Virus record (IMG/VR): IMGVR_UViG_3300031992_000012
Location: 1 to 64,000 of that record
Source of the DNA: a virus
Lineage: Duplodnaviria; Caudoviricetes
Strand: one strand, 5' to 3'
Length of the DNA: 64,000 nucleotides
Part shown: piece by piece, positions 140 to 44,113 of the stretch
Layout: the number at the start of each line of letters is the position of its first letter
Numbering within the stretch: the stretch's first letter is position 1
Notes under the pieces: model-generated
Databases searched by the model: none
Told to the model about the DNA's origin: nothing
The model's input: only the letters and a program-made list of their open reading frames with translations
Position numbers and translations under genes: made by a program

Positions 140-3100
140 ATGAACATAACAGCCAACGCAGCCAGCCTCGACTGGAGAAGCAACAAACACGGCGTCTGGA
201 AGGCGCTCGTCAAGGACATGGCGCCAAACTCGTCCGTGGCGTTCAGCGCAGGCCTTACGGGCACGGTCGCCGGAAGGCAGGTGACAGTGGAATCCCCGTC
301 CATGCCGACCGGGTTCATGACCTACACCACGGACATCACGGATGGCGTCGTCGGCAGCATGCTGTACGGGGCCGGGAGCGTGTCCGACAGCCTGGAGGTG
401 GTGGGCGGTGAGAAGACCGTCAGGATGGGAAGCTACACGTTCACCGGGAATGAGACGTGGATGGAATATCCATACATAAGTAATGCATGGAGCAGTAAGA
501 CAATTATCACGGATTCTAAATCACACTCAGTTGCCATTGTACCTAATGTGATTCTCCCTGGATATGACATTGTAGGGGTTATTAATGCTTCATCCGCTGG
601 AGATAAATTGTGTTCTTTGAACTCGACTTATAACGCTGCCAATACACTAGCTATACGAGACACAAGTTGCACAACAGCGGAAGAGCTTGCAGCCAAATTA
701 GCTGGTAAGACCATCTATTACGAGCTCGCCGAACCCATGACTTCAACGGAGACCGCCCAGTCGCTCGCTCTCCAGACGGGTGTCAACAACCTGGCGCTGA
801 ACGAACGCGGCTCCTCGTTCACGCTGGACTACACGGGCACCGATTTCACCCTCCAGCTGGACAGCGCCCACAAGTACGCCTTCAGCGACAACGGCGTGAA
901 GTCCGTGCTGACGGGTTCTTCGGAGCAAGCGGTCACGGGCGGCCAGGACATGCTGGTTGACGTCACGAGGATGTTCAACGGCGATACGACCGCCATCAAC
1001 GCCGTCACAAGTTGGGCGGACATGGCGGCTGTCATGCCGGAGTACCTGTCCAACGTTGCCTACAACGAGGGGGAGGTCATCGGCAGAAGCGGTGGAGTGA
1101 CTACGGCGAAGTGGAATCAGTTAGAACAACCGCTAACTGCTACGTACTGGCGCAGTTATAAGATTGTGGGTGCAACTGAAGGTGTAGTGAGTTTTAATAC
1201 GACAAACAATACAGTTACACTTACGACTAACGATGTATCAACACAGGTGGCATGCATATATACCGCGGGCAGTGGTAACTACATTACGTTGCAGCAAGAA
1301 CGGGTATATGTATTCAGGCATGAGGTAAAGGGCCCACAAGGCTATGCATTCGCTTTCAATCTACCAATCGGGGGTATGGCATTCATCAGCAGAGCGACAA
1401 TGGAGGCCACTGATACATGGCAAGTTAATGCCAAGTTGTATAGGACGCCAAAAGATGCTGTTCGTGCCAATTTCTTGTTATATACATATCAAGACGCAAC
1501 GCATGCAGGTATGTCAGCAACGTTCCAGATTCGCAACGTCCAGCTTTTCGACCTCACGGAAATCTACGGCGCGGGGTACGAGCCCTCCACCGTTGAGGAA
1601 TTCGAGGCCGACTGCACCAAGTGGGGCAAAGACCTGTCTCAGTACCAGCCCTATGACGCGGGCACGCCGATGGGAGGCTCCGCGACGTTCAGCGGGTTGC
1701 ACGGGGTCGGCACGACGAAGGACACGCAGGACGTGGTGACGGGTGAGAAGATTGTCAGGATGGCAAGCGTGGATATGGGGACGCTGGCTTATAGTTCTTA
1801 CCAAGCTCCCGATGCTGCGCATCCGTATGGCTTTTGTTCGATAAATAATATAAACAAGGCTTTTGGATACAATAACTTTATAAGCACGCATTATCTGTAT
1901 AATGGCGTTAGCTACGACGGGGACAAAACATTCTTTGGCAGCGCCGTAAACAGATACATCTACCTGATAGACAGTTCGCTGATAGGCAAATCTGCTTCAG
2001 AAGTGGCGTCCGCAATGGCAGGCAGACAGCTGGCCTACGAGCTTGCCGAACCCACCACCTCTTCCGAAACCCCCCAGCCGCTGACAACTATCAAGGGACT
2101 CAACAATGCCCACGAGGAGAACATGTCCATCACGGGCACTCCGCTTACGATGGGCTACACCGGGACAGACCAGACGCTATACGCCGATACCGCATCCAAG
2201 TACCTCGCCAGAATCGACGGCGCGGACTTCGTGCTGGAGAACGTGTCGTCCATCGACGTTCGTGGCGGCAGGGACCGCGTCATTGACCTGACCTACATGT
2301 TCGGCGTGGGCAATGAGCCGGTTACGGCGGCGGACTTCTACAAGCTGTTCCCGACGTGGATGGGCTACGCCATCCCGTATAACAAGGGCAGCCTGCTGAA
2401 TTTCAAGGGCACGGGCCTCAAGAGCGTGGGGTTTAACCTGCTGGATACTGGAAATAGGACTCTAGGCCAGCCGCAAAACACGGTTGGTAGCAATACCACT
2501 GTGCGAGGCGTGTTTGATGAGACCAAGTATTATGTCGGATTTGCAGCAAATAATTATTACTCTCCGGCGCAGGTTCTGTCTCACACCATTTCCAGCTCAG
2601 CGGTGTCTGTAACGAACAGGGATGGCGGGTATGGTGTTGCGTTCCCCATACGAGTTATACCTGGGCGGACGTACTATATAGAAAACTATATTAGTCACGA
2701 CACGCGCTTTGCTTTTTATACATATAATGGAAAATGGATAGGTGGTTACGAATCGAGAGCCATAGAAGCCCCTGCAACGGCGTACTGGGCATTGATAGTT
2801 CTCACTACTCCCGGTAATCAATCCATAACTTGGACCAACCCCTGCGTCCACCTCCAGTGGTCCGGCGGCCGCAACGGCGACTACGAGCCCTACTGGGACT
2901 ACACGCGCCCGCTGCCCACGCTGACCTACTTCCCGTCCGGCATGAACGGTCGAGGCGGCGTCTATGACGAGACTACCTCCCGTCAGGCCGTCACGCGCCT
3001 TACCGAAATCGACATGGAGGACCTGGAGTGGACGGAGTCAAATGGCTCGTGGACGGCCACCGTGTCCGGCATGAAGGCAGACACCGCCGCCATCGTCGCG

Positions 3101-3925
3101 GAGAACGGCCTCAAGCCTGTCGTCAGCGGCACGTCCGTCACCGTCCCGTCCGATGCCTCGCCAGTCGGCAAGCTGGTCTACGAGCTCGCCAGCCAGTCCG
3201 TTGTCACCTTCCCGGAGGAGGTCAACACGACCGCCCAGGTGTCCGACTACGGAACCGAGTCCGTCGTGCCCGTCAACGGCTACGAGCTTGTCACGGCGCC
3301 TTTCCTGGGAATAGTCAAGTACCAGGACAACTACGCACGCACCATCACCAAGCTCCCGGAGAACTACCAGTCGCAGGACTCGATGGCCTCCCTGCAGCTG
3401 GTGCTGGGTCAGTTGCTGAACGTCACGCTGACCTCCAGGTTCAACGCCGACGAACAGGCCTACGGCTACACGGTCACCGGCGATGGCGTCCCGGGATTGA
3501 TTGCGGCGGCACTCACGGCTCTCGCGCCTGTCACGGGACTCACCTTCAGGGGCGGCACCTACATGCCCACGGACGGCATGGTCGCGCTGCCCGACCCCAC
3601 CATACAGGGCATCACGGCGATACCCGCGTCCACGTCCAGCTACACGCTTGGCGAGGGCGTCTACAGCCATGCGCCGAACTCCGTCCCTACGTACACGCTG
3701 CCCGCCGTGGAGGACGCCACGGTCGTCCACAAGGCGAGGCTTACGGTCAAGATGAGCGCAAGCGTCCTGACGGCGAACTTCAGGAACAGTGCCGGCGTCG
3801 CGATAGGCTACGAGCCCCCGGCTGGCGATGTACGTGCCGGCACGCTGGTGGAGTATGTCTGCACGTACGAGCCGCTGGCTGGCGGATGGGCGGTATCCGC
3901 ACGGGTCGTCATGCAGACCGCGTGA
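140..3925 (+). CDS. Tail fibre / receptor-binding-like structural protein with repeated modules
   Basis: ~1260 aa, rich in Thr/Gly/Ser/Tyr. Repeated module borders (GEKxVRM ... YELAEP twice, YELAS once) and alternating GC-rich scaffold with AT-rich cassettes. ATG140 follows AGGAAC. Confidence 0.65.
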   Translation: MNITANAASLDWRSNKHGVWKALVKDMAPNSSVAFSAGLTGTVAGRQVTVESPSMPTGFMTYTTDITDGVVGSMLYGAGSVSDSLEVVGGEKTVRMGSYTFTGNETWMEYPYISNAWSSKTIITDSKSHSVAIVPNVILPGYDIVGVINASSAGDKLCSLNSTYNAANTLAIRDTSCTTAEELAAKLAGKTIYYELAEPMTSTETAQSLALQTGVNNLALNERGSSFTLDYTGTDFTLQLDSAHKYAFSDNGVKSVLTGSSEQAVTGGQDMLVDVTRMFNGDTTAINAVTSWADMAAVMPEYLSNVAYNEGEVIGRSGGVTTAKWNQLEQPLTATYWRSYKIVGATEGVVSFNTTNNTVTLTTNDVSTQVACIYTAGSGNYITLQQERVYVFRHEVKGPQGYAFAFNLPIGGMAFISRATMEATDTWQVNAKLYRTPKDAVRANFLLYTYQDATHAGMSATFQIRNVQLFDLTEIYGAGYEPSTVEEFEADCTKWGKDLSQYQPYDAGTPMGGSATFSGLHGVGTTKDTQDVVTGEKIVRMASVDMGTLAYSSYQAPDAAHPYGFCSINNINKAFGYNNFISTHYLYNGVSYDGDKTFFGSAVNRYIYLIDSSLIGKSASEVASAMAGRQLAYELAEPTTSSETPQPLTTIKGLNNAHEENMSITGTPLTMGYTGTDQTLYADTASKYLARIDGADFVLENVSSIDVRGGRDRVIDLTYMFGVGNEPVTAADFYKLFPTWMGYAIPYNKGSLLNFKGTGLKSVGFNLLDTGNRTLGQPQNTVGSNTTVRGVFDETKYYVGFAANNYYSPAQVLSHTISSSAVSVTNRDGGYGVAFPIRVIPGRTYYIENYISHDTRFAFYTYNGKWIGGYESRAIEAPATAYWALIVLTTPGNQSITWTNPCVHLQWSGGRNGDYEPYWDYTRPLPTLTYFPSGMNGRGGVYDETTSRQAVTRLTEIDMEDLEWTESNGSWTATVSGMKADTAAIVAENGLKPVVSGTSVTVPSDASPVGKLVYELASQSVVTFPEEVNTTAQVSDYGTESVVPVNGYELVTAPFLGIVKYQDNYARTITKLPENYQSQDSMASLQLVLGQLLNVTLTSRFNADEQAYGYTVTGDGVPGLIAAALTALAPVTGLTFRGGTYMPTDGMVALPDPTIQGITAIPASTSSYTLGEGVYSHAPNSVPTYTLPAVEDATVVHKARLTVKMSASVLTANFRNSAGVAIGYEPPAGDVRAGTLVEYVCTYEPLAGGWAVSARVVMQTA

Positions 3926-5027: not shown

Positions 5028-6377
5028 ATGAAAATGGATTTCAGCTATCTGACAGGAGGCCGACGAATAATAGTAGCCGGACCCGCCGGCAGCAGGCTTT
5101 ACCGGCTCAACAAACCGGAGTCAGACGACGACACGCGGGGAATCGTCCTCGACCGTACCGACGACATCATCGACATCGAGGGGGTGCAGAACCAGGAGCT
5201 GTCCGACGACTCGCAGGACACGAAGTTCTACGGGCTATACAAGTTCCTGCATCTTGCGGCAGGCTGCAACCCGAACATAATCGAGTTGCTCTACCTTCCT
5301 AAAGATGTAATCTACGAGAGCTCCAAGGAATACGAGGAGCTTCTCAAAATCAGGCACCTCTTCATCACCAAACGCGCCCGTTTCACTTTCGGCGCCTACG
5401 CAAACGCCCAAATCAAGCGGGCTCGCGGCAAGGGCAAGAAGGGGAACGACATAGACAAGTATGTCAACGCGGCAGGATTGGAGAAGCTTCGCATGTGGCT
5501 TACCTACGAGCCCGGCGAACTTCCGATATCGAAGCTGTTCAATGGCTCGTCCTGCATTCTCTACACGTTCGGGCATTTCATGCGCGACTACCTGCACAAG
5601 CTGCCTCCGTTCGTATGGACACCGGAGCTCATGGAGGAGTACAAGGACTTCGACTGGCATAACGACCCGGATATCGTGAAAATGAAACCGCCTCGTCGTG
5701 TCGACTACATCCAGTGGCTTCGCACCGACGAGCACGGGTTCCCGTTCCGCCCTGTCCCTTTCTCGGCCAATCCTGACATCCTGGTTGCCTCCACGGCCAA
5801 GGACGCCTCGAAGTACGACGCCGCCCAGGTGGAGGGGTTCAGCAATTTGTACCGGCTTTACCATAACGGGACAGGTTTCATGGCGCCTGACCAGATGCAG
5901 GTTGTCTGTCATTCCATATCGAAAGAGCGGGAGCGCATGGACTTCGCCGGAATAGCCAAGATTGACGTAGAAGGCTATGAGAAGGCCAAGCGCGAATACG
6001 ACTCCTTCTGGGAGTGGATGTCCCAGCGAAACGAGAACCGCTACACCAAGGACTGGGATTCCAATGCGCAGGTGGATTTCAAAAACCTCATGCACACAAT
6101 GAGGCTTCTCATCTGCGCCAAGAACATCGCCGTTAATGGCGAGCCAATCATACGTTTCGACGGCGAACAGCGCGACTACCTGATGTCCATACGCAATGGC
6201 GAAATCAAGTACGAGAAGATACTGGAGACGGCCGAGGAAATGATTCAGGAAATAGACGTCCTGTTCGAGAAGAGCAGTTTGCCGGACCACGCCGACATGC
6301 CACGCATAAAACAGTTCTATCGGGAAATATTCAAGCAAGCATTATTGGAGGAAATCAAGAATGGCAGCAGTAACTGA
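5028..6377 (+). CDS. Pol-beta-superfamily nucleotidyltransferase (Nuc-transf/RlaP-like)
   Basis: GSRLY...SDDDTRG motif, NPNIIELL, C-terminal KNLMHTMRLL...LMSIRNG; GGAGG RBS. Confidence 0.8.
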   Translation: MKMDFSYLTGGRRIIVAGPAGSRLYRLNKPESDDDTRGIVLDRTDDIIDIEGVQNQELSDDSQDTKFYGLYKFLHLAAGCNPNIIELLYLPKDVIYESSKEYEELLKIRHLFITKRARFTFGAYANAQIKRARGKGKKGNDIDKYVNAAGLEKLRMWLTYEPGELPISKLFNGSSCILYTFGHFMRDYLHKLPPFVWTPELMEEYKDFDWHNDPDIVKMKPPRRVDYIQWLRTDEHGFPFRPVPFSANPDILVASTAKDASKYDAAQVEGFSNLYRLYHNGTGFMAPDQMQVVCHSISKERERMDFAGIAKIDVEGYEKAKREYDSFWEWMSQRNENRYTKDWDSNAQVDFKNLMHTMRLLICAKNIAVNGEPIIRFDGEQRDYLMSIRNGEIKYEKILETAEEMIQEIDVLFEKSSLPDHADMPRIKQFYREIFKQALLEEIKNGSSN

Positions 6378-20219: not shown

Positions 20220-20230
20220 CGCGTAATAAT
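20220..20230 (+). promoter_or_regulatory. YGYGTAATAAT motif copy 2
   Basis: CGCGTAATAAT immediately after a stop codon, followed by a 14-bp hairpin at 20258-20296. Confidence 0.6.
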
Positions 20231-33382: not shown

Positions 33383-33438
33383 AATAGCATGTTCAATCGA
33401 GGAACGTGCTATTAACCCTAATGAAAAGGAAAAGAACA

Positions 33439-35526
33439 ATGAACAGAGTAAAGTTTTTCTCTAACGGCCAGACTTTGATTATGAACCTTGCGGATATTCC
33501 GCATGGTGCCCTTATCGGCTCCAAGGACTTTGACGATGGAAGGCACATTGACTTTTATGAGGCCCTTCCAGGAACACAGGTCATTGCATACGACGAAGCG
33601 ACGGGTAAGCCAAAGTGGGTTGATATCTCCGGTTGGTCGAGGCACACCGGTTCAAAATTGGAGCTGGTGCAGTTGTCCAACGGCGACACGATAACGACGG
33701 ACGACGACCCCCGCGCCGTTTATGGGATGCCTATTGACGCGGTTGGTTTGCAGATGGACAGGGACACGCCCGCTAACGCCAAAAAACGTGCGTTTATAGT
33801 CCCGCTGGTAGGGCAGCTTCCTGAGACTACTCCGGTGTTTTCTTCCGTTGACCTTTTGAACGGCGGTGTTCCTTCAAACGACACGCCAATCCCAAGCAAG
33901 GGAATAATAGCCGCCGACTACAATTTCGGACAGTTCCTTGGTCTTATCGCCGGAGACGGGTGGTGGCATAAGAGTATATACAGTTCTGGTTATAAAAACG
34001 CTGTTCTTTTAGCAGACCTTTACGGCTCAAATGCCGGCTTTATTATAAATTGGGCTAAGGAACTATTCCCTAGTTTTAAATACTACAAGAGCGAGCAGAG
34101 AAAGGAATTATACTCTGATCGGTTTGGTGACTGTATTTCGTGGTCCTTCTACTTCTACGATTCCATGATAATGTGCGACGCCCTGTCCAACATGCTTGAC
34201 GGGCATAGTGACAACAAAACGGCAGGAGCAGGGAACAAGCGTCTTCCTTACTGGTTCCTGTCCATGCCGAAGGAGTTCCGTCTAGGTCTTCTTAATGGTC
34301 TAATGGCTTCCGATGGAACAATAAATTTCAATTCCTCCGGCGACAGAAGCCACCCAGAACTGCAGCTTCAGTTCACATCGACATCCCGGGCGCTTATTGA
34401 CGACGTAAAGGCTTTGTGCACTTCCCTGGACATACGCGCCACAATATTATTCTCGAGGAAAACAGTCCGCGACAATACATCCTGGGTGGTTGTTCTGAGC
34501 TCCCAGGACTGCAAACGAATGGACGTCTTTTCCCGTTGCTGCTGCGACTATAAGCGTGATACGTTCCTGAACGCGGATGTCTCGATGGACGCGCAGTACA
34601 ATCACGGTGACTTTCTGCCGCTTCCGAAGCAGGTGTCCGATACAATGTTCAAATACGTGAAGTGCCGGGCGAAGATTGCCAAGGCGGTTATCGAGGATTG
34701 CCCTCTTCCTGCCTACTGCAAGAGGGGGAACTCCGTCTATCAGTCGTTGTACCAGTATAGGTCCAAGGGGTACATAACGAGGGAATTCGCAGGCCGGCTA
34801 TGCGACTGGCTGGACGATACGACAAGGATGAACCTATGGTTCAATGACTATATCAAGGATTTTACAACGCGTTTGAAAAACGGTGAGCGTGTTTTCAAGG
34901 CGGAGGAGGGGAACACGCTGGTGGAAGCCATAGCCTTCAATGCGGGTTATTTTGACAAACCATCTGTTCTTGAGGCACGGGCCAAGTCAAGCATGCTTCG
35001 TCAGAAGACAAGCAGGTTTCCTGTAAACTTGCCTGAAGCTCTTGAGAAGGTGACGCTGTCTGATGATGCTATCCTGTTCAATCCTGTCGAGAAGGACCCA
35101 GTGCTAAGGGCCTGGTTGGAACTGTCGGCGTGTCCGATAAAATGGGCTTACATAGAGGATGTCCAGAAAACAGGGCAGGAGGAGGAAGGATATGACCTTA
35201 CTGTTCCCGGATATGAGACCTTTGCGTCCGCCAGCGGAATAATCCTTTCCAACACAATGACATACTACGTGCCTGTCTCCAAGAAGGCCGTGCAGGAGGC
35301 ATACGACCTCATGCTTCCTTCCAAGAACCAGTTGGCGGCCCGTGACTTCAAGGCCCTTCCCGAGCTTCAGGAGGAGCTGGTCTCCGGGGCGTGGCTGGCG
35401 TCTCATAAGAAGAACGCGCCTGTAAAGGCCGTGTTCAACACCCGCGCCGAAGCCATAGCGGCCTACCGCGCAGGAGAAATAGACATAGACGACAATGTGG
35501 TAATAAAGGAAGACCAGCACCGCTGA
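33439..35526 (+). CDS. Intein C-fragment (Hint + LAGLIDADG, ~605 aa) fused to a 90-aa beta' segment that continues from NADFDGD
   Basis: FLGLIAGDG, LLNGLMASDG, EGYDLTVPGYETF...ILSN|TMTYYVPVSKKAVQEAYDLMLPSKN; the part after the bar matches RpoC [25 protein letters not shown]. Confidence 0.9.
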   Translation: MNRVKFFSNGQTLIMNLADIPHGALIGSKDFDDGRHIDFYEALPGTQVIAYDEATGKPKWVDISGWSRHTGSKLELVQLSNGDTITTDDDPRAVYGMPIDAVGLQMDRDTPANAKKRAFIVPLVGQLPETTPVFSSVDLLNGGVPSNDTPIPSKGIIAADYNFGQFLGLIAGDGWWHKSIYSSGYKNAVLLADLYGSNAGFIINWAKELFPSFKYYKSEQRKELYSDRFGDCISWSFYFYDSMIMCDALSNMLDGHSDNKTAGAGNKRLPYWFLSMPKEFRLGLLNGLMASDGTINFNSSGDRSHPELQLQFTSTSRALIDDVKALCTSLDIRATILFSRKTVRDNTSWVVVLSSQDCKRMDVFSRCCCDYKRDTFLNADVSMDAQYNHGDFLPLPKQVSDTMFKYVKCRAKIAKAVIEDCPLPAYCKRGNSVYQSLYQYRSKGYITREFAGRLCDWLDDTTRMNLWFNDYIKDFTTRLKNGERVFKAEEGNTLVEAIAFNAGYFDKPSVLEARAKSSMLRQKTSRFPVNLPEALEKVTLSDDAILFNPVEKDPVLRAWLELSACPIKWAYIEDVQKTGQEEEGYDLTVPGYETFASASGIILSNTMTYYVPVSKKAVQEAYDLMLPSKNQLAARDFKALPELQEELVSGAWLASHKKNAPVKAVFNTRAEAIAAYRAGEIDIDDNVVIKEDQHR

Positions 35527-36654: not shown

Positions 36655-37236
36655 ATGAAAAAGACAGAAACCAAGAAAGAAACAGTAAAGAAGCCGAAGG
36701 CCGCAAGCCTCACCCTCTCACTGGTTCCCAACAAGATGATGCGGGCAACGCTGTCATGCAAGACGGTGCAGGAGCGCATTGCCCGCGTGATGCTGGACAA
36801 GGCGAACGAGACAACAGCCGGCCTACCAGGAGCCCTTGTCAATTCCGAGCTTTTCGAGGCGGCCGTCGCTTGGTGGGAAGGCGGAAAGGAAAGCGGGGCG
36901 TACCCGCTGTTCCAGGCCCTTTCCGACAGTGTCCCTGGTCTGGTGGCCATGCCAGTCGATACAGCCGACGGCGAAGACACCGCCGTCATCGTGGCCCTTC
37001 CTGACGACTTTTTCCCGGTCGACATGTGGCTGGCAATGTTCCTTATGAAGGAGCAGGGCATACACAAGGGCTATTCGCTTTATCGTAGCAGACAGGCGGT
37101 CAAGGTAGGGCAAGGGCGCTTCGGTGTCCTTAACCGGAACTACCATGTCGTAAGATTTACGGACAAGAAGATGGACGACGCGTGGACCAAGGTCAACCCT
37201 GTCTTCACTATTTCTCCGGAAGCGCTGAAACACTGA
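36655..37236 (+). CDS. Hypothetical protein
   Basis: GGAG RBS; codon usage typical of this genome. Confidence 0.65.
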   Translation: MKKTETKKETVKKPKAASLTLSLVPNKMMRATLSCKTVQERIARVMLDKANETTAGLPGALVNSELFEAAVAWWEGGKESGAYPLFQALSDSVPGLVAMPVDTADGEDTAVIVALPDDFFPVDMWLAMFLMKEQGIHKGYSLYRSRQAVKVGQGRFGVLNRNYHVVRFTDKKMDDAWTKVNPVFTISPEALKH

Positions 37237-37242
37237 TTGTTT

Positions 37243-37253
37243 TGCGTAATAAT
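37243..37253 (+). promoter_or_regulatory. YGYGTAATAAT motif copy 4, upstream of the ncRNA/tRNA unit
   Basis: TGCGTAATAAT followed by a hairpin at 37261-37307. Confidence 0.6.
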
Positions 37254-37323
37254 TAATTGAAAGGACGGCCGTAGCACTGAAACAATGAAGTGCCATACAC
37301 CGTCCTTTCTTAGCGCATTGATT

Positions 37324-37871
37324 TCCTATGACCAAGACCATTGGCGATGATACGTATGGCGTTTCCATTTCTGGATAGCCACAGGGACAGTAACCCTGCG
37401 TTCTCGCTGCTGGAGGAGGTGGCCTAGCGGCTCCCGTGTGGATCTGGGGTCCCTTTCAGGGAGTTCCAAGTAGCGGGGTGACAGGAAGGTGTCGTCGTGA
37501 CAGGACGGCAGAATCCGTGCGTGAAGCTTCACATGTACTTTGCCGTCTCGGCACCGTGTCCGGCATGTGGAGGCTATCAGGACGATGGACGAGCCAAGGA
37601 CTCAGGCATTGTGTGCGCTATGCGCCACTATACCCTCGCTTGGGTGCGAGGGGTCGGTATCCATTCCGGCGTGCCTTCCTGGGTTATCTGAAAGGTCCTA
37701 TCGGAACCGGTTGGTCGCGGGCATTGTAGGCTGCGTGTCCGCGCCTGGAAACCACTGGTGGTTAAAAGAGAGTACGTTTGGCGTCCATAGGAGGGCGGCC
37801 GGTTTGTCTGGCCGCTGACGTCACCGCCAGGGGCGGCAAAAACCTACAGCCGGGGAGTCGTGCACCCTGGC
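37324..37871 (+). ncRNA. Candidate large ornate structured ncRNA (~550 nt; ROOL/GOLLD-like context)
   Basis: No credible ORF; five nested long-range helices, many local hairpins and a potential pseudoknot; abuts a tRNA. Confidence 0.65.
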
Positions 37872-37876
37872 ATTTC

Positions 37877-37949
37877 GTCCGGGTAGCATAATGGATAATG
37901 CATCTGATTTCTAATCAGACGATTGCGGGTTCGAGTCCCGCCCCGGACA
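37877..37949 (+). tRNA. tRNA-Arg(UCU); CCA not encoded
   Basis: Acceptor GTCCGGG/CCCGGAC, D-arm GCAT/ATGC, anticodon arm TCTGA-TTTCTAA-TCAGA, T-arm GCGGG-TTCGAGT-CCCGC. Confidence 0.95.
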
Positions 37950-38049
37950 TCTGTTTGTTTTGTAAATGGAAGGCGGGTCTGCGTGAGCGGCCGCCTCGCC
38001 TTCCGGGTTTTTCCTTAGGCCGCAAAGTTTTTGTAAGGAGGCTAGTAAC

Positions 38050-38901
38050 ATGTACCTTAAACTCCACGTTGAGCGTGAAATCTCCAGTGCGGAACTGGAG
38101 GCATTTACAAAGATTCTACCCTTTCTCAAGAAGGGCATTGACACGGGCGAGCTGACGTTGTCCGACAACTCGGAACCGGTCAGGACACTTGAACTCCCAG
38201 AGGCCAAGATTGTCCCGGCGACAGCCGAGATTCGGCTGAAACCTGTCCGCAAGCCACACCGTCCTTGGCGTGTTCGCGTCGACCAGGCCATTCGGGCCTG
38301 CAAAGAATTCCGCGAAGGGAAATTCGCGGAAAACGTCGACATGATGCTTGAGACCTTTGCTTGGCAGGTCTCCGACATGGCCGAGTGGGTGCCATACACC
38401 CGCGAGGAAATAGCCGATGCACTGGTAATCGACAAGAGCGACGTTGACCCTCTGATGAAGACCTTCTACAGGGTTCTGAACCGCTCGTCCGCTCTAGCAA
38501 CCAACTGCTTCATGCTTCCGCCAACGCTGGCCGAGGCCGTCAAGAAGGAGGAGGCCAATACGGCGGAACGGGAGGCCCAGAACAAGGAGCAGACGGGTGA
38601 CGAGCACATCGGGTTTGAGCAGAACACAAAGAGAGCCATCACCGAGTCCCTGATGAAACTCGATTGGGATTCCCCGGACAGGTACGAGATGAAAATCTCT
38701 GACTTCCTGTTGTGGGGCAAGGTGAAGGACGCCAACAACATCAACGTCATCCGGAGTTTCATGCCTATCGCCCGGGGCATGAAATTGAGCATTCAACGTC
38801 TCCGTGCAGAGCGGGACTCCAAGAACAGAATCGTGGGAATCTACGCGTTCCCGCCGCCACGAAACGGAGCGTTCTGGAAGAGCGCGAAGAAAGTGGAATA
38901 A
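38050..38901 (+). CDS. Hypothetical protein
   Basis: AAGGAGG RBS; 283 aa. Confidence 0.7.
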   Translation: MYLKLHVEREISSAELEAFTKILPFLKKGIDTGELTLSDNSEPVRTLELPEAKIVPATAEIRLKPVRKPHRPWRVRVDQAIRACKEFREGKFAENVDMMLETFAWQVSDMAEWVPYTREEIADALVIDKSDVDPLMKTFYRVLNRSSALATNCFMLPPTLAEAVKKEEANTAEREAQNKEQTGDEHIGFEQNTKRAITESLMKLDWDSPDRYEMKISDFLLWGKVKDANNINVIRSFMPIARGMKLSIQRLRAERDSKNRIVGIYAFPPPRNGAFWKSAKKVE

Positions 38902-39082: not shown

Positions 39083-42000
39083 ATGGAAGAAATCAGATTC
39101 TTTAGGAAGCGGTCCGGCCGTCTCGTGAACTTCAAACTGCAGAAGATTGCGGACGCGGTCGGGAAAGCCCTCGTCGAGGCGTGCGCAGCGTCGGGGAAGT
39201 CATTGGATGTCAAGGCCGTTTCCACGGCAATCGCCGAAAAGGTAAGGGCGTTGCTGGATGACAAGGACTCGCAGTTTTTCGTTCAGCCGGACAGGATGGG
39301 TTCGCGGGTCCCCCATCTGGAAGGCGTGCAGGACGCGGTTGTCAGCGTCCTCAAATCATCGCATGAAGATATAGAGGGGTATGACGCGAACATGGCCGAG
39401 CTCACGGGCCGTCTGTACGCCGACTACCGGAAGAAGAGGGACGAGGCCAGGAAGCAGCTCAAAGTCCGCAGCAGCAAGGACAACGCCGATGTGACTGACA
39501 AGGCCCTTCTCCTTGGGGACAGCAAGAACGTCCTCAACGGGTGGGACCGCGAGCGCATAGTCTCCGATCTCAAGGAGCACAACGTCGACGACGAAATAGC
39601 CGAGAAGGTCGCAAAGGAGACAGAAAGCGCTCTCCTGAAGACCGGCCTGTCTAGTGTGTCGTCCGACCTTGTCTCCGAATTGGTGAACAGTGTCATGGCC
39701 GACAACGGTCTTCCCATAAGACTCGCCGCCGGGAAGGGATACATAGTCGACAAGGATTTCGTCGAAGGGCTTATCAAGGAGAAGTCCGTAGAGAACAGCA
39801 ACATCGTCGGCAACAACCCTGAAGCGGTGGCCTTTGACATTGCCAGCAACGTTTTCAAGCAATACGCCCTTGACAACGTTTTCTCGAAGGACATCGGGGA
39901 AGCTCATATGAGGGGAGCAATACACCTTCATGATTTAAACTTTGTCATACGTGGCTACTGTGGTTCCCACAGCATCGAATACATCAAGAAGTGGGGGCTG
40001 AAGGGTCTGGTAAACCTGAACACGGAAAGCAAGCCTGCCAAGACCGCATCGGTCCTGACCGGCCATCTGAACACGTTCCTGGCTTCCATGCAGGCTTACT
40101 ACGCCGGAGCGCTGGGCCTGGGGTATCTTAACGTCCTCTATGCTCCGTTGATGACGGGAATGGACGACAAACAAATGCACCAGGTGGCTCAGGAACTTGT
40201 GTTCAACGGTTCTCAGAATGCGTTCAGCCGTGGTGGTCAATCACTGCATCCTTCCGAACCTATATGGATTAAAAAGGATGGTAGATATAAGAGTGTCCTT
40301 ATTGGTGAGTTTATCGACGAATATCTTGCCAGAAGGGCAGAGGCTGTTGAGAAGCGAGACGAATACGAGCTGCTCCAAACAGGAGACGAGGGTATCGAAA
40401 CAATAAGCTTCGACGGCCTAAGCGGAAAGGTACTGGACAAGACGGTTACTTTCCTTGCACGCATGCCTCATAAAGGCAAGATGTACCGTATTCACACGTC
40501 TAACGGAATTGTCAATGTTACAGGTGACCACTCGGTGTTCACTTTCCGGGGAAAGCAGGACATAGCTGATGTAAAAGCCAAGGACCTTAAGAGGGGCGAT
40601 TTTGTAGTCATACCCCACAGAGTTCCCCTCAAGGAGGAGAAGACAACAGTAAATGTTGTCGATTACGTTCCTGAGAAATGGCTATCGGTTAGTGGCTTTG
40701 AAAATTTCCTGTCCAAGGTGTCAGCTAAGGGCACCCCGGCAAAGGTCCTCGAGGAAGTCGGAGCTACCCGCTTTATCTTGAAAGATGGAAAGAAGACAAA
40801 CAAAGTAAGGATTTCCTTGGCTAAACATTTTGTTGATGTCAGGAATAGCGTTTTGTGTCTGAAGGGTGATAGCCAGTCGTTGTTGCCCGCAGAGATTCCT
40901 CTGACACGGGAGCTGGGCTATATAGCCGGTATGTTCTGCGCGGAGGGGTATAAAACTCTTAAGAAGGTTCTTATCAGCAATACTGATATAAAGCTTCTGG
41001 AGAAGGTACGGTCATGTCTGGATAAAATAGGGTACTCAGGATATTCCTATTACAACGGCATGATGCACGGAATGACGACGGACCATATAGAAATAGGCGG
41101 TGTTTTCGGGGCTTTCCTGCAATCTTCGTGTACATCCGGAAAGAAGACAAAAGTAGTTCCGGATTGGTTGTTCAACGCACCAATGGTTTGTCGTGAGGGG
41201 TTCCTTGATGGTTTCTTCGACGGTGAAGGCTCCAATAGGAAAGACTGCCCGGACGAATGGAGCGTCTCCAACACAAGCACACGGGTAGTGGCCGGTATAA
41301 GCTTGCTTTTACTGAACTACGGTAGAGAAACATATGTTTACGAAACCAAGCATGACAATGGCTGGTCTGACGTATATGAAGTCCGGGAAGCGCAGCGCAG
41401 AAAGGTCAATCCGTTTGACGAGTACACAACGGAAGAAGGGTTCCGCACATACAGCAAGCATCTGTCAAAGGATGTCAGGGATGCCGTGGAATGGCTCATA
41501 GAGTCAGACTTGTCGGTGTCTATCATCAAACGCATTGAGGAATACGATTATGATGGTCCTGTCTATGACATAAGCGTCCCAGGCACAGAGGCTTTCCTTG
41601 GTGGAACAGGGAATGTGTTTTTGCACAATACGCTTTTCATTGACTTCAATGTCCACAGCGGCGTCCCGTCGTATCTGAAGGATGTCCCCGCTATTGGACC
41701 TGGCGGAAAGTACATGGTTCAGGTCTTCCACTGCGGCGAACCCTTCATCAAGGAGCTCACCGAAGTCAAGGACGAGAAGACAGGCGACTGGGACCTCTAC
41801 CTTGACTGGGGCAACGAACATCCTGTCCGCATGCTTCATGAACACGACGGAAAGCAGGTGTTCGAGAACGAAAACACCGAGCGCCATGTCATGCGCTACG
41901 GCGACTACGCCGAGGATACCGCCCGTTTCGCCGAGGCGTTGCTCGACGTCTGGAAGGAAGGCGACGCCAATGGCCATGTTTTCGAGTTCCCCAAGTGCGA

Positions 42001-44113
42001 CTTCCATGTCTCCTCCGAGACATTCACGGACGCCCGCCAGTACCAGGTGTTCAGGAAGGCCTGCGAAGTGGCGAGTCACAATGGTTCGACCTACTTCGTG
42101 TTCGACCGCGATTCCGTGTCTTTGGCGAGTTGCTGCTTCACAGGAGACACCAGGATTCTTATTGGCGAGGACCGCGACCCGTCGCTTACATGTTTCCGCG
42201 ACGCCTATGACAAGTACGGAATCCACAACAGGACAATCCGTGTATACGACAGGGGCTCGTGGAGGAAGGCGAAGGTAATCCGCCTTTCCGGCAAGAACCG
42301 CCGAATGCTGTCGGTGAATCTGGCCTGCGGTAAGCACGTCTGCGTCACCGCCGACCATGAGTTCCCGACAACGCGCGGAGTGCTCAAGGCCTACGAGCTT
42401 ACCCCCGACGACGCAGTCCTGCTGTCCAGCAGCATGGCCGAAGGGCATCGCCGGTGCGAGGGAAAGGACAAGGCGCAGGTCTACGGAATCATAGCAGGCG
42501 CCTACCTGCTGTCCGGGCATTGCACCTCCACAGGCAAGACGATAGTCGTTGGAAACAGCCTTCCCGGCCTTGAAAACACGTTCTCGGAGACAATGAACAG
42601 CGCGCTTGAATCGGCAGGTTTCGACAAAGGCGTGTGCATGGTCGAGGAGGACGGCAACCGTCAAATGTGGGTCGTCACTAATCCTGAAATCCTCAACGGC
42701 GTTGAAAAATTGCTCAAGCGGACGGAGAACGGCGTATTCCTGTCCGATGCCATATATCGTGAGAGCCCGGCTGCCAGGGCCGCTGTCCTTATAGGACTCC
42801 TCGCGGCCTCCGCCGTCGAGTGCGAAGTGACTCCCGGCAGGATGGAGCTTCTTCTGGAGCAGATTGAGGCTATGGCCACGACCATCGGCGTAATCTGCAA
42901 AAAGCGAGTCGACGGGGATGACGTGTGCTTCTCCTTCGCCCCCGCAAGCATTGGGATGGAGGGCGAGACCATCGTCAAGGACGGTGAGAGCTATCTCAAG
43001 GTCCTGTCGGTAAAGGAAGTGCTGGAGCCCGAATGGGTCTACTGCTTCACTATGCTCGACACCAAGGACCCGTTCTTCACGCTGCCAAACGGTATCGTCA
43101 CGCACAACTGTCGATTGAAAGTGCAGATAACTGATATGTCGCTGTTGCAACATCCTGAAAGACTGAGAACACTAGGCTTTCAGAATGTCACAATAAACAT
43201 CCCTCAGTGCGCATACCGCGCCAAGCACAGGTACGACAGGGAAGGGGAAGGAAACATTGACAAGCTCAATGAATTCTTCCTTGCCGAAATCGACAGTATG
43301 ATGGACATATGCAAGGCCGCCCATCTCCAGAAGAAGGCGTTCGTCGAGACGCTGATGCGTCCCGGAGCGCCCATGTGGCAGATGGCCAAACCGTCCAACG
43401 ACGGCAATCCGTATCTCGACCTGAACACGGCCGTGTACATAATCGGCATGATTGGCCTCAACGACGCCGTCCACTATCTGACCGGAGAGGAGATGCACGA
43501 GTCCGACGCCGCCATGGACTACGCCCTCAACGTGATGACTCACATGTACCTGCGCTCCAAGGAATACACCAAGGAGACAGGCCTGACGTTCAAGCTCGAG
43601 GAAAGCCCGGCTGAATCGGCGGCTCGCCGTCTGGCGAAGGCCGACCTCGCCCTTTACAGGGAGGACGCGCTCAAGGTGTTCAAAGGCACCGAGGACGCCG
43701 CCTACTATACGAATTCCATACATCTGTCGGCCGACGCGCCGGTGGACATAGTGGAGCGTATCAGGAAGCAGTCGATGTTCCATAGCATCATCGAGAGCGG
43801 GGCGATTATTCATGTCTTCCTGGGCGAGTCCCGCCCCACGTCCGGAGCCATAGAGGAGCTTATACGCAATGTGTTCCTGCGTACCCAGTGCGCCCAGCTT
43901 GTCTTCAGCCCGGAGTTCACCTACTGCAACGAGTGCGGAAGGGAACAGGCCGGATTGAAGGACACATGCGATCAATGTGGTTCTTCTAACGTAATAGGTA
44001 TAACACGCGTTGTAGGTTACTACTCTGTCGTGCAGAATTGGAACAAGAGCAAGCGTTATGGCGAGCTCAAGGCACGCCAGCGCGGCAACTACAACGTGGA
44101 GGAGGCGAAATGA
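39083..44113 (+). CDS. nrdD: Anaerobic (class III) ribonucleotide reductase with N-terminal ATP-cone(s) and two inteins
   Basis: KRSGRLVNF..KIADAV (ATP cone), IHLHDL..YC, SRGGQ|T, SC|CRL, EESPAES, YYTNS, CNEC..CDQC and RVVGYY glycyl-radical motif. Confidence 0.95.
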   Translation: MEEIRFFRKRSGRLVNFKLQKIADAVGKALVEACAASGKSLDVKAVSTAIAEKVRALLDDKDSQFFVQPDRMGSRVPHLEGVQDAVVSVLKSSHEDIEGYDANMAELTGRLYADYRKKRDEARKQLKVRSSKDNADVTDKALLLGDSKNVLNGWDRERIVSDLKEHNVDDEIAEKVAKETESALLKTGLSSVSSDLVSELVNSVMADNGLPIRLAAGKGYIVDKDFVEGLIKEKSVENSNIVGNNPEAVAFDIASNVFKQYALDNVFSKDIGEAHMRGAIHLHDLNFVIRGYCGSHSIEYIKKWGLKGLVNLNTESKPAKTASVLTGHLNTFLASMQAYYAGALGLGYLNVLYAPLMTGMDDKQMHQVAQELVFNGSQNAFSRGGQSLHPSEPIWIKKDGRYKSVLIGEFIDEYLARRAEAVEKRDEYELLQTGDEGIETISFDGLSGKVLDKTVTFLARMPHKGKMYRIHTSNGIVNVTGDHSVFTFRGKQDIADVKAKDLKRGDFVVIPHRVPLKEEKTTVNVVDYVPEKWLSVSGFENFLSKVSAKGTPAKVLEEVGATRFILKDGKKTNKVRISLAKHFVDVRNSVLCLKGDSQSLLPAEIPLTRELGYIAGMFCAEGYKTLKKVLISNTDIKLLEKVRSCLDKIGYSGYSYYNGMMHGMTTDHIEIGGVFGAFLQSSCTSGKKTKVVPDWLFNAPMVCREGFLDGFFDGEGSNRKDCPDEWSVSNTSTRVVAGISLLLLNYGRETYVYETKHDNGWSDVYEVREAQRRKVNPFDEYTTEEGFRTYSKHLSKDVRDAVEWLIESDLSVSIIKRIEEYDYDGPVYDISVPGTEAFLGGTGNVFLHNTLFIDFNVHSGVPSYLKDVPAIGPGGKYMVQVFHCGEPFIKELTEVKDEKTGDWDLYLDWGNEHPVRMLHEHDGKQVFENENTERHVMRYGDYAEDTARFAEALLDVWKEGDANGHVFEFPKCDFHVSSETFTDARQYQVFRKACEVASHNGSTYFVFDRDSVSLASCCFTGDTRILIGEDRDPSLTCFRDAYDKYGIHNRTIRVYDRGSWRKAKVIRLSGKNRRMLSVNLACGKHVCVTADHEFPTTRGVLKAYELTPDDAVLLSSSMAEGHRRCEGKDKAQVYGIIAGAYLLSGHCTSTGKTIVVGNSLPGLENTFSETMNSALESAGFDKGVCMVEEDGNRQMWVVTNPEILNGVEKLLKRTENGVFLSDAIYRESPAARAAVLIGLLAASAVECEVTPGRMELLLEQIEAMATTIGVICKKRVDGDDVCFSFAPASIGMEGETIVKDGESYLKVLSVKEVLEPEWVYCFTMLDTKDPFFTLPNGIVTHNCRLKVQITDMSLLQHPERLRTLGFQNVTINIPQCAYRAKHRYDREGEGNIDKLNEFFLAEIDSMMDICKAAHLQKKAFVETLMRPGAPMWQMAKPSNDGNPYLDLNTAVYIIGMIGLNDAVHYLTGEEMHESDAAMDYALNVMTHMYLRSKEYTKETGLTFKLEESPAESAARRLAKADLALYREDALKVFKGTEDAAYYTNSIHLSADAPVDIVERIRKQSMFHSIIESGAIIHVFLGESRPTSGAIEELIRNVFLRTQCAQLVFSPEFTYCNECGREQAGLKDTCDQCGSSNVIGITRVVGYYSVVQNWNKSKRYGELKARQRGNYNVEEAK
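40241..41629 (+). mobile_element. Intein in NrdD (463 aa, LAGLIDADG)
   Basis: RGGQ|SLHPSE...VTGDH...YIAGMFCAEG...FLDGFFDGEG...VYDISV...FLHN|TLF. Confidence 0.92.
42134..43108 (+). mobile_element. Intein in NrdD between the paired active-site cysteines (325 aa, degenerate endonuclease)
   Basis: ASC|CFTGDT...VTADH...VYCF...VTHN|CRL; the LAGLIDADG-like helices lack their acidic residues. Confidence 0.9.

Follow-up and report, generated by a model that had tools for sequence, protein, structure and literature searches.

Large structured RNAs are rare in bacteria and their phages, and the two phage-associated classes are ROOL and GOLLD. ROOL RNAs average 581 nt, are borne by phages and prophages, and often lie beside tRNAs, with which they are possibly co-transcribed (PMC5737381). 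Both ROOL and GOLLD form RNA-only nanocages, and in GOLLD tRNAs can be embedded in, or covalently linked to, the RNA (bioRxiv 10.1101/2024.12.08.627333). The locus described here comes from a jumbo phage with a genome of 205 kb and its own RNA polymerase. It resembles ROOL in being a putative phage RNA gene of similar size next to a tRNA, so that the two share their genomic context. It differs from ROOL in that the ROOL model finds no match, and in that ROOL spans several phyla, whereas the core RNA of this locus has been found in one small phage lineage only. The comparison with GOLLD is similarly mixed. Here, too, a large phage RNA would lie by tRNAs, with a tRNA-Gly and a tRNA-Arg flanking the core; however, GOLLD is often longer than 800 nt and carries a universally conserved 3' domain, and no Rfam family apart from tRNA matches the present locus at E<=10.

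A third point of reference is provided by tRNA maturation, in which RNase P and the enzymes that form tRNA 3' ends also cut non-tRNA transcripts that are punctuated by tRNAs. The core is likewise bounded by a tRNA at its 3' side and, in one variant, at both sides, so that maturation of the tRNAs would give it defined ends. Unlike in those transcripts, its processing is presumed only, and one natural variant (L009) is without a tRNA, so processing by tRNA enzymes is not obligatory.

The promoter-to-terminator unit and its surroundings

The stretch of DNA that was analysed (the window) comprises positions 1 to 64,000 of a virus record of 205,081 bp, for which CheckV estimates a completeness of 94%. 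Between an ORF at 36655-37236 and another at 38050-38901, 813 nt are without a credible gene. The initial annotation had pointed to a long ORF-free stretch at this place, and 37369-37910 is indeed the window's longest interval without an ORF of at least 100 aa in any frame. A single tRNA, tRNA-Arg(TCT), was found in the 813-nt gap by both ARAGORN and Rfam; its start at 37877 lies five nt past 37871, the spacing that had been noted earlier. The elements of the unit follow one another in this order:

37225..37253, + strand: promoter-like element, CTGAAA-N17-AATAAT within GCGTAATAAT; matched in a consensus scan
37259..37311, + strand: 5' hairpin, dG -24.4 kcal/mol, z -5.96
37312..37374, + strand: leader, its 3' part dispensable, with 37360-37374 replaced by tRNA-Gly(GCC) in L004/L010
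37375..37876, + strand: constant core of about 500 nt, a probable ncRNA, present in all four variants
37877..37949, + strand: tRNA-Arg(TCT), an accessory that differs between variants; detected by ARAGORN and by Rfam (74 bits)
37968..38012, + strand: GC-rich hairpin plus U-run, probable intrinsic terminator, dG -26.5 kcal/mol, z -2.74

The upstream motif had been described as repeated and promoter-like, and this description is borne out by the genome as a whole. Seven copies of GCGTAATAAT are present in the 205-kb genome (the local one at 37225-37253), invariably on the + strand and in intergenic positions, with sites at 20221, 35542, 37244, 46453 and 63122 in the window and at 83554 and 153520 beyond it. 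An A-rich element of the CTGAAA/TAAAA type lies 5' of each copy, most copies are directly followed by a hairpin, and the distant relative L037 carries GCGTAATAAT too (2011-2020). Taken together, GCGTAATAAT and its upstream element look like a promoter class of the phage group. Because the hairpin at 37259-37311 directly follows the -10, as hairpins do at other promoter copies, it would most likely form the transcript's 5' end and not serve the upstream gene as terminator. One of its pairs, 37266/37302, changes from C-G to U-A in variant L002, a compensatory exchange. At the other end of the unit, the hairpin and U-run at 37968-38012 went unflagged in a simple terminator scan. As a separate observation, the motif copy at 153520 is located about 1 kb upstream of an island of seven tRNAs.

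Homing elements are abundant around the genes for NrdD and the RNA polymerase. NrdD, the anaerobic ribonucleotide reductase (39083-44113 of the window), contains intein as well as LAGLIDADG domains; LAGLIDADG and intein-splicing matches are also found in the ORF that comes after the RNA polymerase (33406-35526). Elsewhere in the same genome, stretches without ORFs of at least 100 aa occur at 73841-74789, 155823-156254, 156693-157449 and 190791-191313; in these four stretches, only tRNAs and chance-level matches were returned by Rfam. For the genome window that starts at 190501, folding is much more stable on both strands than expected from the G+C content (residual about -65 kcal/mol), and a long inverted repeat is suggested by this.

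A conserved non-coding core with variable flanking tRNAs

Relatives were located by flanking-protein searches in metagenome assemblies, and four distinct versions of the locus were obtained. The version in the window is also represented, without any difference, by L005. In L002, to which L003 is identical, the core is followed by a tRNA-Arg(CCT) (5827-5900), the acceptor and T arms of which are as in the window, while its D and anticodon arms differ. The L009 version is without a tRNA. Instead, an insert of about 540 nt after the core encodes an HNH endonuclease (2988-3392; Pfam HNH_3, E 4.5e-8), and the core is still ~93% identical; the leader shows several substitutions and two 1-nt deletions. 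L009 is also without the upstream 193-aa gene (36655-37236 in the window), a 248-aa gene being followed directly by the promoter (L009 2189-2230), and the 193-aa gene is thus dispensable within the lineage. The fourth version, L004/L010, was joined for analysis from two contigs with a 15-nt overlap, both from the same sample. There, a tRNA-Gly(GCC) takes the place of window positions 37360-37374 and is followed by the core and by an Arg-like tRNA (L010 561-634), which has an 8-nt anticodon loop and could not be typed by ARAGORN.

The flanking tRNAs accordingly vary among relatives, and comparison of the four locus versions delimits a constant element of about 37375-37876. The RNA had initially been drawn from 37324 onwards; this start has to be given up, as the constant unit begins near 37375 instead. 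The slot that adjoins the core is a swap site, in which tRNAs figure as interchangeable accessories. Since the flanks change and the core stays, the RNA would be the constant product of the unit and not the leader of a tRNA.

Sequence conservation sets the core apart from its surroundings. Each of the six pairwise comparisons among the variants gives 92.7-94.5% identity for the core, compared with 77.6-86.1% for the adjacent gene, orf283. Between the window and L002, the RNA is identical at 94.6% of positions, orf193 at 85.7%, orf283 at 82.4% and the tRNA at 64.9%. The core is, in short, conserved better than the neighbouring protein genes. It is also non-coding. Indels of 1-2 nt each are found at nine separate sites among the four variants, and internal ORFs are frame-shifted from one variant to another. 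Substitutions in the core are distributed over the three positions (mod 3) as 11/16/22 (p=0.16), compared with 54/34/175 in the orf283 control. Small indels together with absent codon periodicity indicate a sequence that is non-coding and constrained. A conserved coding signal, which would have counted against the initial annotation, is therefore absent, given indels that shift the frame and third positions without bias. The proposal of an ncRNA gene beside the tRNA is upheld by the indels, the aperiodic substitutions, the shared promoter-to-terminator unit and purifying selection.

Known RNA families account for the tRNA only. When 37100-38100 was searched by cmscan with the 4227 families of Rfam 15, using permissive filters and E<=10, nothing came up besides the tRNA but antisense-tRNA artefacts and two matches at chance level; GOLLD, OLE, HEARO, RNase P RNA, group I and group II introns and 6S were unmatched at that threshold. 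The ROOL model (RF03087) gave no match at E<=10 anywhere in the 205-kb genome, and was equally silent on control genomes. Membership of ROOL is defined by a gathering score of 99.1 bits, which this locus does not reach. No tmRNA was detected by ARAGORN. The locus had been left without assignment to a known class, and Rfam, with ROOL, RNase P, tmRNA, introns and HEARO among the families without a match, gives no cause to change this.

The known distribution of the RNA is narrow. A blastn search of 50,697 phage records matched the tRNA alone, and IMG/VR yielded neither a homologue of the locus via flanking proteins nor an exact k-mer of the RNA. In JGI metagenomes, the sole 20-mer match (L013), 44 nt inside a soil contig, was dismissed as chance. 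Fifteen matches of a GC-rich 20-mer in GTDB genomes were likewise rejected; each extends over 21-29 nt between dissimilar flanks, and, as the 20-mer translates to A-P-C-P-A-C-G when read as codons, they are attributed to chance, made more frequent by GC-rich codon usage. Thus, in phage records, IMG/VR, JGI and GTDB, the searches returned no homologue of the RNA outside the small lineage.

More distant phages keep the gene order RNAP ... orf283-homologue-NrdD. In L016, the RNA polymerase of which is 57% identical, there is no gap and no copy of the RNA, as judged by blastn on the whole record and nhmmer on the locus. In L036 and L037, where the orf283 homologues are ~30% identical, ORF-free stretches of 0.5-1.3 kb are present (196-1512 and 1996-2565, respectively), and the one in L036 embeds a tRNA-Thr and a tRNA-Pro, while the one in L037 bears the GCGTAATAAT promoter motif. 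Neither stretch has detectable similarity to the RNA core by nhmmer, blastn or shared k-mers, nor a match in Rfam. These stretches may be analogous ncRNA loci.

Folding of the core

The initial annotation had drawn an ornate architecture for 37324-37871, in which long-range helices (numbered here from the outermost inwards) are properly nested and joined by a pseudoknot. All 11 of the complementarities listed there are present where they were placed, counting Watson-Crick and G-U pairs. Over the 548 nt, however, complementarities of seven bp (Watson-Crick plus G-U) number 263, versus 257 ± 19 in dinucleotide shuffles. With complementarities at chance level, any sequence of this kind would allow a nested set to be chosen. 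Natural variation contradicts three of the helices. Uncompensated losses of pairs affect helix 1 (37324-30/37786-92) in both L009 and L004/L010. For helix 3 (37361-67/37746-52), L009 shows two mismatches, and tRNA-Gly sequence replaces the 5' strand in L004/L010. In helix 4 (37373-80/37682-89), a mismatch arises in each of L002, L009 and L010. In L004/L010, the 5' strands of helices 1, 3 and 4 are either replaced or cut off from the core by the tRNA-Gly. Helix 5 shows one compatible and one disruptive change among the variants, and helix 2 and both pseudoknot strands are invariant in 4/4 variants. The nested architecture with its pseudoknot is, as a whole, not sustained.

What does emerge is a more modest folding signal. 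Minimum free energies compared with shuffles give z -2.49 on the + strand and -1.08 on the - strand for 37324-37871, and z -1.99 on the + strand for the core (37375-37876). The better-than-shuffled energy that had been sought is thus found, but the margin is small. Among 274 genome windows of 502 nt, with energies regressed on G+C content, the + strand of the core ranks 11th (z -1.9), while the - strand has z +1.0. The folding excess is thus real, moderate and strand-specific.

Patterns of variation are consistent with this. Of 60 variable columns, 32 fall in unpaired positions, which make up 36% of columns (Fisher p=0.0024), according to a fold predicted from the window sequence alone. Substituted pairs remain paired in all variants in 14 of 24 cases, a count that sliding the partner by 1-3 columns lowers to 4-11 of 24, and the pairs that are kept mostly switch between G-U and G-C or between G-U and A-U. 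Such G-U switches are sensible only for an RNA of the + strand. A single pair of the core, 37751/37762, is fully compensatory (A-U to G-C), and one-sided changes compatible with pairing affect 12-14 pairs; four sequences that share 92.7% identity or more, however, give no statistical power for covariation, and comparative determination of the structure is blocked for now.

Local hairpins are predicted robustly, for example at 37503-37548 (z -4.2) and 37779-37836 (z -2.9), and substitutions and indels concentrate in the loops of the local hairpins. Predicted long-range helices, on the other hand, receive base-pair probabilities close to 0 and are not the same from one variant to the next. Overall, the evidence for a fold of the core is modest. 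The palindrome AAGCUU in the loop at 37524-37531 was considered as a kissing loop and rejected, as the other variants do not keep AAGCUU. A search for antisense targets in the phage genome gave nothing beyond chance.

Competing explanations and a proposed pathway

The observations are best explained by a dedicated, constrained ncRNA gene, the product of which would be released from a tRNA-containing precursor and act in trans as a stable RNA; this reading is considered reasonably probable. Its main rival holds that conservation has causes at the level of DNA, either repeated gene conversion between co-infecting phages, which would keep a recombination or homing hot spot homogeneous, or an origin or protein-binding DNA element. 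Recombination at the locus is suggested by the exchange of the adjoining tRNA, by the homing-type HNH gene in the tRNA slot of L009, by the complete identity (100%) of 37950-38049 between the window and L002, and by the frequency with which assemblies break at the locus, and homing-linked conversion could partly explain the high identity. Recent conversion should nevertheless leave some pairs near-identical, and the six pairs of the core are uniform. Further points against this rival are variation that avoids predicted stems, stem changes that are mostly G-U-compatible and on the + strand only, the strand asymmetry of folding stability, and a position exactly between promoter and terminator, and it is regarded as unlikely. 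Alternatively, the stretch could belong to the tRNA precursor as a long 5' leader or spacer that acts in cis on tRNA transcription, processing or stability and has no function of its own; its place between promoter and tRNA, which it approaches to within 0-5 nt, would fit. This is harder to reconcile with a variant that retains the RNA when the tRNA is gone, with tRNA identities that switch beside an unchanged RNA, or with the L004/L010 version, in which a tRNA stands in front of the core as well. A leader that outconserves its own tRNA, moreover, by 94.6% to 64.9%, is hard to explain, and a role of this kind appears quite improbable.

The two remaining alternatives concern the identity of the product. 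A highly divergent ROOL, or another known large RNA missed by the Rfam models, would agree with the length of 500-615 nt (near the ROOL average), the phage origin and the neighbouring tRNAs. The ROOL model is silent genome-wide, although its silence on the controls leaves its sensitivity unproven, and the 1 kb searched with all 4227 families gave the tRNA and chance-level matches only; such an identity is judged very improbable. Small proteins are the least credible product, and are hardly credible at all. The + strand has ORFs of 63-97 aa, and a 64-aa ORF with a GTG start (37497-37691) and a CPAC motif is preceded, 7 nt upstream, by a Shine-Dalgarno-like AGGAAGG. The 1-nt indels at 37594 and 37650, however, shift its frame and leave C-terminal halves that are unrelated between variants, and the internal ORFs show neither codon periodicity nor a Pfam match at E<=1.

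That the dedicated ncRNA gene is transcribed, and that its RNA is processed, folds stably and acts in trans, is what we infer, and a pathway can be outlined. The promoter at 37225-37253 would drive a single transcript that ends at the hairpin and U-run of 37968-38012. Release of the core would then fall to the host's tRNA-processing enzymes. RNase P would cut directly before the downstream tRNA, and where a tRNA-Gly lies upstream, the enzyme that matures tRNA 3' ends would in addition set free the core's 5' end. An RNase P-made 3' end had been suggested from the outset. It is plausible for three of the variants, but it is not general, as L009 keeps the RNA without a tRNA and has the HNH gene in its place. 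Once freed, the core would form a stable RNA with many local hairpins that acts in trans during infection, and by analogy of context it may work like ROOL and GOLLD. As a guess, it might bind or sequester a macromolecule of the host or the phage, possibly as a multimeric RNA particle. It is tempting to go further and to suggest the first member of a third class of large phage RNA, unrelated in sequence to ROOL and GOLLD, which is cut from a tRNA-punctuated precursor and folds, or perhaps self-assembles, into a defined particle with a role in jumbo-phage infection, with the promoter-bearing stretches of L036 and L037 as fast-evolving counterparts; this extension is tentative and rather doubtful.

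Taken as a whole, the RNA is probably a real and new large phage ncRNA of narrow known distribution. The unit offers a compact test case, in that it has a clear promoter and terminator, and natural variants keep the RNA as tRNAs come and go. The phenomenon would extend beyond ROOL and GOLLD with a further tRNA-linked large RNA that is unrelated to them in sequence and is encoded by a jumbo phage equipped with an RNA polymerase. As the tRNA is dispensable here, the locus also bears on the question of why such RNAs neighbour tRNAs.
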